Shown here in pieces: positions 52,429 to 52,526 of a stretch of DNA of 64,000 nucleotides. The stretch comes from an uncultured Bacilli bacterium (GTDB taxonomy: Bacteria > Bacillota_I > Bacilli_A > RF39 > UBA660), in contig CAKOOV010000001.1 of the NCBI GenBank assembly GCA_934098435.1, positions 54,185 to 118,184 on the forward strand, in the 5' to 3' direction. A program made the position numbers and the translations under genes. Position 1 is the first letter of the stretch, and every line of letters starts with the position of its first letter. Below the pieces are notes generated by a model. It worked only from the letters and a program-made list of their open reading frames with translations. It searched no databases and was not told where the DNA came from.

Positions 52429-52430
52429 AT

Positions 52431-52449
52431 ATCCACAGTTTTTGTTGAT
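52431..52449 (+). repeat. degenerate ATCAACA/TGTTGAT-family hairpin (T5)
   Basis: ATCCACA-GTTTT-TGTTGAT (one arm mismatch). Immediately precedes hairpin cluster D. Confidence 0.45.
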
Positions 52450-52450
52450 T

Positions 52451-52526
52451 AATTTAGAGACTATAGGCTCTAAATTGCTATGGAAAGACTATAGGCTTTT
52501 CATATAAGCGAGAGACCTTAGGCTCG
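52451..52526 (+). repeat. tandem-hairpin repeat cluster D (AGAC-loop-GGCT family), 3 hairpins
   Basis: AATTTAGAGACTATAGGCTCTAAATT (52451-52476), ATGGAAAGACTATAGGCTTTTCAT (52480-52503) and CGAGAGACCTTAGGCTCG (52509-52526). Confidence 0.8.

Follow-up and report, generated by a model that had tools for sequence, protein, structure and literature searches.

A 64,000-nucleotide stretch of DNA from an uncultured Bacilli bacterium of the RF39 type (contig CAKOOV010000001.1, positions 54,185 to 118,184; hereafter the window) carries, at its positions 52,429 to 52,526 and at five other places between genes, short hairpins standing in tandem. The question raised by this locus is what these hairpins are and what may read them. 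An earlier note, made from the letters of this DNA, had described them as a new family resembling the REP and BIME repeats (repetitive extragenic palindromes and bacterial interspersed mosaic elements). We find 16 hairpins in six intergenic clusters, called C1 to C6 in order of position. The reading that we prefer, with a probability of roughly 0.55, is that of a lineage-specific, REP/BIME-like composite repeat of RF39-type gut Bacilli, derived from a mobile element, which would be read as a folded single strand by a protein. RF39-type Bacilli are common human-gut bacteria, uncultured and with small genomes, and to our knowledge nothing is known about their non-coding DNA.

A conserved tip on covarying stems

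The six clusters lie where the earlier note had placed them, the fifth (57291-57367) in reverse orientation, and they are far more numerous than chance would allow. The pattern AGAC-N3-8-GGCT occurs 15 times in the window for 2.6 expected, with none of 100 shuffles reaching 15, and GAC-loop-GGC with at least three flanking Watson-Crick pairs occurs 12 times for 0.5 expected, with a maximum of 4 in 200 first-order Markov simulations. A covariance model, R1, was then built from 92 non-redundant hairpins (alignment A1) taken from other genomes only, with no window sequence included. When the whole window was scanned with R1, filters off, nine hairpins were found at E<0.01 and the other seven at 12-20 bits, all inside the six clusters; nothing else stood out over the full 64 kb, and the AGAC strand scored about 20 bits above the opposite strand. 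A seventh copy, proposed at 11114-11131, gave no R1 match at E≤10 and is therefore not supported.

The anatomy of the unit was established from 109 low-GC sources (the window and 108 loci, cited below by L numbers), which hold 133 clusters and 309 hairpins. About 100 clusters have two hairpins and 36 have three, singletons making up only 33 of the 309 hairpins. A typical hairpin is 26-28 nt long (range 20-33 nt, within the 20-40 nt size criterion for REPs) and consists of a 7-9 bp stem of free but complementary sequence under an invariant tip. The tip reads RAGAC, loop (mostly YWYA), GGCTY, a conserved A.G mismatch being enclosed by a G-C and a C-G pair. Within a cluster all hairpins have one orientation, head-to-tail. 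The tip-to-tip distance is 27 nt in 89 cases and 28 nt in 46 (135 of 177 spacings), which means that 28- and 26-nt hairpins abut without linker. The earlier outline of the clusters is thus refined to directly abutting hairpins with a 27-28 nt period, and C1 gains a degenerate third module at 19987-20011. When 62 two-hairpin and 15 three-hairpin units are aligned, their consensus has A/T-rich arms outside the hairpins (AAAATnTTGTT / AATAAACTT on the left, A-rich on the right) and no GTAG or CGTC tag.

In the 28-column alignment, G10, A11, C12, G17, G18 and C19 are identical in 92 of 92 sequences and A9 and T20 are above 90%. The pair next outward from this core is of the R-Y type (A-U 61, G-C 27, U-A 3). 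Loops of 4 nt are found in 150 of 183 hairpins, with CTTA (53), TATA (27) and TACA (24) the most frequent and the last A nearly fixed, counts that are biased by a scan pattern in which the first loop was pre-set to YWTA; the full range is 3-9 nt, slightly wider than the 3-8 nt first given. In three distinct hairpins (C5 of L001 and of L005; L158) the closing C-G pair has become T-A (GAT..AGC) with the A.G kept, a covariation which supports a drawing with G-C, A.G and C-G below a tetraloop. Stem mismatches on the AGAC strand are mostly purine.purine (53, versus 6 pyrimidine.pyrimidine), and they concentrate as tandem G.A/A.G in the last hairpin of the cluster, for example (T)AGTGAGAGAC-YWYA-GGCTCGAACT(A). 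The conserved A.G mismatch, the variable yet complementary stems and the last-in-cluster subtype, all three noticed earlier, are therefore real. Among about 1300 stem pairs we counted only 8 G.T and 5 A.C; such rare G.T wobble is more in keeping with pairing in DNA, or with templated arms, than with a typical RNA helix.

Covariation of the stems is strong, both against shuffles and between orthologues. Hairpin 1 of 113 low-GC pattern matches has 6.5 of 7 further Watson-Crick pairs for 2.1 expected by chance, the scan pattern having fixed the tips only and left the stems unconstrained. In A1, 93% of cells are paired versus 61% in shuffles, double-change cells number 337 versus 108, and shifting the 3′ partner lowers pairing to 38-60%; since A1 members were pre-chosen for at least 6 of 8 pairs, its pairing count taken alone is biased. 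Between orthologues with flank identity below 85%, stem changes comprise 122 double and 161 single ones, loops differ at about 22% of positions, and the six core bases differ at 1 of 786 sites. With flank identity below 92%, tip differences amount to 3/1630 (2/570 in antisense copies, 1/990 in sense copies) for 4-18% in loops; the few copies in divergent contexts give 4/70. Hairpin 1 of L152 and L169 illustrates this behaviour: five of nine outer pairs differ, all compensated, between flanks that are 85-89% identical. At orthologous sites with preserved spacing the unit was lost in only 2 of about 80, both by deletion, so that the invariance of the tip does not come from ascertainment. The combination of a frozen asymmetric tip and drifting stems suggests that a protein reads the unit as a folded single strand.

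The hairpins of the window are as follows, with their R1 scores.

19937-19956, plus strand: C1 hairpin 1, GTAGAGAC-CTTG-GGCTCTAC, then T7; partial match, 15.9 bits
19960-19986, plus strand: C1 hairpin 2, TTTTATGAAGAC-TTT-GGCTTCATAAAA; 32.3 bits, E=4e-5
19987-20011, plus strand: C1 third module, degenerate, apparently of terminal type (assigned by eye), CAGCGAGCAACAATGTGTGAGATGA
34637-34664, plus strand: C2 hairpin 1, AGTTTTAAAGAC-TTAT-GGCTTTAAAACT; 34.2 bits
34667-34692, plus strand: C2 hairpin 2, TTTTTGAAGAC-CTTA-GGCTTCAAAAA; 37.7 bits
34693-34717, plus strand: C2 terminal hairpin, CACCAGAGTGAC-TATA-GGCACGAGG, core-adjacent A-T changed to T-A, compensated
42153-42173, plus strand: C3 hairpin 1, short stem, AGAGGAGAC-TTTT-GGCTCTGA; weak match, 11.9 bits
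42183-42202, plus strand: C3 hairpin 2, GTAAGAC-ATTTAT-GGCTTAC; weak match, 12.2 bits
52451-52476, plus strand: C4 hairpin 1, AATTTAGAGAC-TATA-GGCTCTAAATT; 36.5 bits
52480-52503, plus strand: C4 hairpin 2, ATGGAAAGAC-TATA-GGCTTTTCAT; 28.5 bits
52508-52529, plus strand: C4 terminal hairpin, GCGAGAGAC-CTTA-GGCTCGAGT, tandem A.G/G.A beneath the tip; 16.3 bits
57343-57365, minus strand: C5 hairpin 1, TTTAAAGAC-TATAA-GGCTTTAGA; 25.6 bits
57313-57338, minus strand: C5 hairpin 2, TAAATAAAGAC-CTTA-GGCTTTATTTA; 39.4 bits
57287-57310, minus strand: C5 terminal hairpin, AGTGAGAGAC-TACA-GGCTCGAACT, tandem G.A/A.G; 19.6 bits
61027-61059, plus strand: C6 hairpin 1, AAATATGAAGAC-TATTTTATA-GGCTTCATATTT; 29.7 bits
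61060-61087, plus strand: C6 hairpin 2, TTCATTAAAGAC-CTTA-GGCTTTAATGAA; 40.7 bits, top score of the window
61088-61112, plus strand: C6 terminal hairpin, CATAGAGAGAC-TTT-GACTCTCTATG, mismatched G changed to A

C1 hairpin 1 starts 18 nt past the stop of the open reading frame (ORF) at 19194-19919. A third module like that of C1 (cagcgaacaacgaagtgtgagatg) also trails two-hairpin units in L180 and L233, and its base, CAGYGAG...GAnnTG, resembles by eye terminal hairpins such as CAGTGAGAGAC..GGCTCGAACTG. C2 is flanked by a minus-strand ORF (start 34462) and by secA (34800), and the TGAC..GGCA form of its terminal hairpin is also present in the orthologous copies of L231 and L198. C3 is the least typical of the six. 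C4 hairpin 1 is kept in ten strain contigs and upstream of polC in other species (L146, L175, L193, L207, L237), and C6 hairpin 1 has orthologues upstream of polA in L133, L164, L181 and L216. In the C5 terminal hairpin of L001 and L005 the closing-pair change described above is compensated (GAGAT-TACA-AGCTC). In the L001 strain contig the C6 terminal site reads GGAGAGAC-TTT-GGCTCTC, the canonical form. A substitution of the mismatched G by A (GGC to GAC, turning A.G into A.A) is recurrent: we observed it at 61088-61112, in C4 hairpin 3 of L001, L004 and L008, in L175 and in L195, every time in the last hairpin of its cluster.

Placement, orientation and the strand that may be read

Only one of the 133 clusters lies inside an ORF, and the typical distance from a stop codon is 5-60 nt, on either side. 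The clusters had been placed at gene ends and at the borders of accessory segments; the former holds, in the sense of proximity to stop codons, and the latter does not except at C5, where an accessory Fic insertion is bracketed by a different hairpin family. C4, C6 and C2 stand ahead of the promoter regions of polC, polA and secA, respectively, past the end of the preceding gene, and the positions of C4 and C6 are kept in many species. Of 46 units that are sense to the upstream gene, 18 begin no more than 11 nt past its stop codon, many of them 5-11 nt past it; of 61 in the antisense arrangement, 53 have their terminal hairpin 6-61 nt from a stop codon.

Orientation was counted over 82 orthologous groups. 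Among those with two-hairpin units, 29 have the unit antisense to both neighbours and 13 have it sense; the corresponding counts for three-hairpin units are 2 and 8. With respect to GC skew, the G-rich strand carries 32 of the units in tandem-gene contexts and the C-rich strand 40. The neighbouring genes are on the G-rich strand in both classes, and the orientation of the unit therefore follows neither transcription nor replication.

Termination had been among the functions proposed, and ordinary Rho-independent terminators sharing a tip by chance would explain units at gene 3′ ends and the T-runs that follow some hairpins (T7 after C1 hairpin 1, TTTTT after C6 hairpin 1). However, at least 5 T within the 8 nt after the stem are present for 18% of first hairpins and only 2% of last hairpins on the sense strand, and for 9-18% on the other strand, with a background T frequency of 0.37. 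This lack of U-tracts indicates that the unit is not a standard intrinsic terminator. Moreover, C4 and C5 are each already preceded by a separate canonical terminator, one unit sits within an apparent operon, and termination would leave the invariant, asymmetric, mismatch-bearing tip unexplained. We regard this explanation as very improbable. A crude detector revealed no clear pattern between the orientation of a unit and the position of terminators before or after it.

Still less credible is a family of small RNA genes, present in many copies and each with a promoter of its own. Such genes would account for an orientation independent of the neighbouring genes, and an A-rich AAAAT-type motif located 4-13 nt upstream of hairpin 1 is readable as a -10 box. 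Yet this motif is indistinguishable from the A/T-rich intergenic background, in the alignment of 62 units neither a -35 nor a TG-extended -10 is conserved at a fixed distance upstream, and the sense strand has no terminator after the last hairpin.

A role in RNA, especially for sense units abutting stop codons, remains a serious rival, which we consider unlikely overall. The unit would then act in cis in the mRNA 3′ untranslated region (UTR) or in read-through transcripts, as a 3′-end stabiliser, a processing site or the site of an RNA-binding protein, or it would modulate translation termination where it lies less than about 15 nt from the stop, as has been reported for E. coli REPs. The orientation of the window clusters and the sense units that start at most 11 nt past the stop codon agree with this role. 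The A.G mismatch, the tandem G.A and the 4-nt loop ending in A are typical of RNA-protein recognition. Folded as RNA, the sense strand reaches -23.8 kcal/mol (z = -2.7) versus -15.9 kcal/mol for the opposite strand, and the unit in the apparent operon stands between a stop codon and the ribosome-binding site of the next gene, without disruption. Against this role, 31 tandem-gene units are antisense to both flanking genes for 21 that are sense, when counted by orthologous group. The tip is equally invariant in the antisense copies, where the RNA would present GCC..GUC with a C.U mismatch, which is hard to square with a function confined to the mRNA of the flanking genes. There is also no conserved promoter upstream, G.U is almost absent and Rfam gives no match. 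We lean to DNA over RNA on the grounds of equal tip conservation in antisense units, the missing conserved upstream promoter and the near absence of wobble pairs.

Some other readings were tried and set aside. As for mimicry of rRNA or tRNA hairpins, R1 matched nothing in one E. coli rrn operon, which is a weak test. Restriction sites, DNA-uptake sequences, Chi/KOPS-type motifs and kissing loops do not fit loops that vary over 3-9 nt, the lack of strand bias and a self-complementarity limited to CTTA.

Copying, distribution and the search for a partner protein

Evidence for copying comes from two kinds of comparison. In UMGS1185 the same 54-nt two-hairpin unit, CATTATGAAGACCTTAGGCTTCATAATG CCCCGAAAGACTAYAGGCTTAAGGGG, is found at three loci with unrelated flanks (L139, L157, L220), and a second unit is repeated at L213 and L236. 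The paralogues share about 9-17 nt leftward (ATTTAAACAAAATTGTT) and about 10 nt rightward (AAATAnAAAG). These two ends are not inverted repeats of each other, and no target duplication is visible around the three UMGS1185 paralogues, whose ends are not base-precise. At another locus the site is empty in L131 and L153, where AAATAA directly joins GAAAG between the stop codon and the next gene, and filled in L152, L239 and L169, which have 64 nt more directly after the TAA stop (ATAT, hairpin 1, hairpin 2, TAATAA), flanked by AATAA on each side. From the recurrence of units, unchanged in sequence, at several loci of a genome, together with this filled and empty site, we conclude that units have been copied. 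The absence of terminal inverted repeats (TIRs) sets the element apart from a classical miniature inverted-repeat transposable element, to which it had been likened and whose TIRs match the ends of a DDE transposase.

The distribution is that of one clade. An exact-pattern scan of a species-representative genome collection, in which only two tips and their spacing were fixed, yielded at least 115 loci, 108 of them on low-GC (25-29%) contigs from at least 23 species-representative assemblies. Among the matches listed, the carriers are labelled uncultured Bacilli, 'Tenericutes', Clostridium sp. CAG:302 and Firmicutes CAG:321; one further bin, labelled 'Paludibacteraceae', is evidently mislabelled. 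The family CAG-302 sits in the order RF39 according to GTDB (PMC7676259). Ten strain contigs with identical SufU have C4 nearly unchanged, and the longest, L001, also has C5 and C6. Extrapolation from six clusters in 64 kb gives about 10^2 clusters per 1.5-Mb genome. Among distinct perfect inverted repeats with 7-bp arms in the sampled loci, 101 of 371 carry the tip, a fraction biased upward as these loci were chosen for the element. In 2.9 million viral contigs the specific pattern had a single match, probably by chance, in a metagenome-assembled genome (MAG) of a giant virus, from which we conclude that the element is not phage-borne; a looser tandem-tip pattern gave 120 rows, all chance matches or coding tandem repeats.

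Nothing in Rfam (release 15) reached the gathering score, and at E≤5 nothing was found at any cluster. A literature search on the core 10-12-mers and on RF39 repeats returned only incidental primer-type matches and nothing relevant. Together with the strong covariation and the copying evidence, the distribution over at least 23 species-level genomes of one clade bears out the earlier proposal of a lineage-specific REP/BIME-like family that corresponds to no described one.

The same note had suggested a substrate of a RAYT (REP-associated tyrosine transposase). RAYT and IS200/IS605-type genes were looked for with phmmer in the ORFs of the window and of the sampled clade loci, some 0.93 Mb of DNA surrounding the elements. 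Four Y1 queries were used: E. coli RayT, IS200 TnpA, IS608 TnpA and a RAYT-like protein of L189, the IS200 and IS608 sequences being approximate. As a positive control, E. coli RayT detected the RAYT-like ORF of L189 at E=8e-4. An autonomous element, with an ORF between a left-type and a terminal hairpin, was likewise looked for, and no ORF is framed by any of the 33 singletons. L189 itself was rejected as a source of the partner: it is a Margulisiibacteriota single-cell genome with an unrelated RAYT-like Y1 gene and its own REPs, and its pattern match is coincidental. The gene and its flanking REPs occupy L189 40-135, 269-949 and 2320-2640, and the REPs read GGTCTC-T-GAGACC and then TTAGGCTCA.

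Several observations weigh against the mobile, REP-like reading. In the ~0.93 Mb, no match better than E=0.1 was obtained among 2757 ORFs with the four queries, and Pfam and NCBIfam revealed no transposase or recombinase adjoining the window clusters. The GTAG/CGTC tags and the alternating orientation of BIMEs and REPINs are absent from the units sampled, as is, among tandem-gene units, a replication-strand orientation bias such as IS200/IS605-type elements show. Each of the six clusters in the window has the orientation of its upstream gene, which fits a 3′-UTR role at the RNA level too, and purine.purine mismatches are classical features of RNA-protein recognition. With one clean empty site, and AATAA on both sides of the filled one, insertion with target duplication is not separable from insertion without it. 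Finally, strong purifying selection on the tip of each copy suggests a host function rather than a purely selfish element.

As a further rival, the units may be host chromosomal protein-binding sites only (nucleoid, gyrase or cruciform-binding), never mobile, which arose and were maintained in situ. Orthologous presence kept in 78 of about 80 comparisons, purifying selection on the tip whatever the orientation and the lack of a transposase in the DNA searched all speak for such sites. We nevertheless find them improbable: one genome has identical 54-nt units, short shared flanks included, at loci that are not homologous, the 64-nt filled/empty polymorphism is clean, and a symmetric duplex-binding dimer would leave unexplained both the conserved asymmetry and the need for arms that are complementary though free in sequence.

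A more open alternative, which we advance tentatively and think unlikely, is that the hairpin tip (G-C, A.G and C-G under a YWYA loop) and the terminal tandem G.A are the address of a hairpin-specific protein which RF39-type Bacilli would have and which is not a RAYT. Some 10^2 units in each genome would then form a host-maintained network, for instance of chromosome-structuring sites, of replication or transcription boundary sites, or of a new RNA-protein 3′-end system. Selection would keep only the surface in contact with the protein and leave the stems free to drift.

A homologous hairpin pair with RAGAC-YWTA-GGCTY tips at 28-nt spacing was observed in L168 (370-419) and L177 (4001-4050), two unrelated MAGs of 35-37% GC labelled Gammaproteobacteria and 'bacterium'. 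Their stems are GC-rich and conserved (GCGGAGC..., GCAATG...). The L168 pair directly follows a GIY-YIG/T5orf172 gene and the L177 pair is about 40 nt outside an IS3-family insertion sequence. As a lead this variant was abandoned: a single metagenome scan gave six loci, chance matches in contigs of 52-70% GC except possibly L250, and no Y1 gene was found at any of the six.

To return to the preferred REP/BIME-like reading, units would have spread by copy-and-paste, without TIRs and in both orientations, to A/T-rich sites within a few nucleotides of a stop codon, and would then have persisted at orthologous sites across species. The element would act as a folded single strand, most likely of DNA (a hairpin or a cruciform arm), and the mismatch-bearing tip would be the recognition site of a structure- and sequence-specific protein. 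For this protein, the leading candidate class would be a HUH/Y1-type nuclease such as RAYT or an IS200-type TnpA.

Neighbouring features, known repeat families and significance

The window has 25% G+C, uses the standard genetic code and encodes PolC, DnaE, PolA, SecA, ValS, SufU, an [FeFe] hydrogenase, ParA, a Noc/ParB-like protein, RnpA and YidC. The SufU shares 98-100% identity with proteins encoded on many gut-metagenome contigs, in keeping with an uncultured low-GC member of the Bacilli. GC skew flips sign at about 8000-10000, a region flanked by rnpA and yidC, both minus-strand, and by parA and parB, both plus-strand. This arrangement is origin-proximal, and no dnaA was seen between rnpA/yidC and parA/parB. 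The Noc/ParB-like protein (10100-10987) scores 231 bits with TIGR04285, under the 315-bit cutoff. A perfect ATTTCCCGGGAAAT palindrome, which we take to be the B. subtilis Noc-binding-site consensus, is found at 61122-61135, 10 nt past C6. Between parB (ends 10987) and an ORF at 11500, positions 11298-11375 on the plus strand give a sub-threshold match to the Rfam cspA thermoregulator (38.9 bits for a gathering score of 78, E=1.6e-6), which may be the 5′ UTR of a small cold-shock gene.

Around C4, a DnaA-box-like TATCCACA is located just before the cluster, at 52431-52438, and a direct repeat of AAGATTGTAAA, in two copies, lies at about 52534-52557 between C4 and the polC promoter. The motif TTGTAAAAAAGAT is kept upstream of polC in L146, L175, L207 and L237 and may be a regulator site. 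Immediately left of C4, at 52449/52450, there is a 13-nt indel, AAATAACATAGAT (L001 3826-3838), bounded by GAT direct repeats. It is missing in the window and in L003 and present in eight other strains, and its absence removes the A-rich left arm that orthologous units show. Next to C5, a second hairpin family, AAAATGCACAA-N-TTGTGCA, has three copies for 0 expected (57394-57420, 58651-58667, 58693-58719). They bracket the Fic-domain gene at 57516-58646; L001 is without this gene and has a single hairpin copy at the empty site, and the gene thus looks like a cassette inserted at or next to the hairpin.

We compared the RF39 units with four known systems. The REPs and BIMEs of Enterobacteria and Pseudomonas are likewise short extragenic imperfect palindromes, present in about 10^2 copies per genome (here by extrapolation), clustered, placed after genes, polarised by a conserved mismatch and inherited vertically over long times. 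Head-to-tail dimers are known in some REP families, and REPs are marked by a conserved tetranucleotide, GTAG or CGTC, at one palindrome end, as stated in a REP survey (PMC3733652) that makes no mention of Firmicutes, Clostridia or Tenericutes. In contrast, the foot tag is absent from the RF39 units, whose hairpins abut directly instead of alternating. Classical REPs conserve the whole palindrome, whereas here only a 10-nt tip is conserved and the stems are hypervariable, and genomes with REPs have a RAYT gene, typically flanked by REPs, while none was found near the RF39 units in the ~0.93 Mb.

The non-autonomous elements derived from IS200/IS605 (PATEs) also lack TIRs and have subterminal hairpins with mismatches on one strand, as the RF39 units do. 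Recognition as single-stranded DNA would, by analogy, be a shared property, and the short outer arms (about 9-17 nt to the left of the hairpins, about 10 nt to the right) resemble the IS608 geometry. The 'end' hairpins of the RF39 units, however, abut with nothing between them, no replication-strand bias of the kind that insertion tied to the lagging-strand template would give is seen and no TnpA was found in the DNA sampled. The BOX elements of Streptococcus pneumoniae, compared by architecture only, are modular Firmicute repeats as well, forming intergenic hairpins with a variable internal and a distinct terminal module and without a transposase gene of their own; their modules (boxA-boxB(n)-boxC) are 45-59 nt long, whereas the RF39 units are made of 26-28 nt hairpins sharing one tip. 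Integron attC sites resemble them in a conserved structure with a few unpaired or mismatched bases, a free stem sequence and a reading as folded single strand. An attC is nevertheless single and 57-141 nt long, flanks gene cassettes and needs IntI, whereas the RF39 units are tandem and dispersed after ordinary genes with no integrase nearby. The broad features of the REP type are thus all present here: extragenic imperfect palindromes, many copies, clustering, mismatch polarity and persistence. Direct abutting hairpins, tip-only conservation, a terminal tandem-G.A module and a low-GC uncultured Bacilli host form a new combination, which matches no family known to us.

In practice, the units make good strain-typing markers, are assembly break-points in these MAGs, and need masking in searches for terminators or small RNAs. 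For the biology of the clade, the dozens of independent hairpins in 82 orthologous groups, with compensatory stems and a frozen 10-nt mismatch tip, bear the signature of a specific macromolecular partner. If this partner is RAYT-like, low-GC Bacilli would join the range of REP-RAYT biology, with a new hairpin grammar in which only the tip is conserved, hairpins abut in direct orientation and GTAG is lacking. If it is something else, the units would belong to a new host system and their interest would rise; in the case of a non-RAYT, hairpin-specific protein, the L168/L177 pair would point to a wider, unrecognised recognition module.

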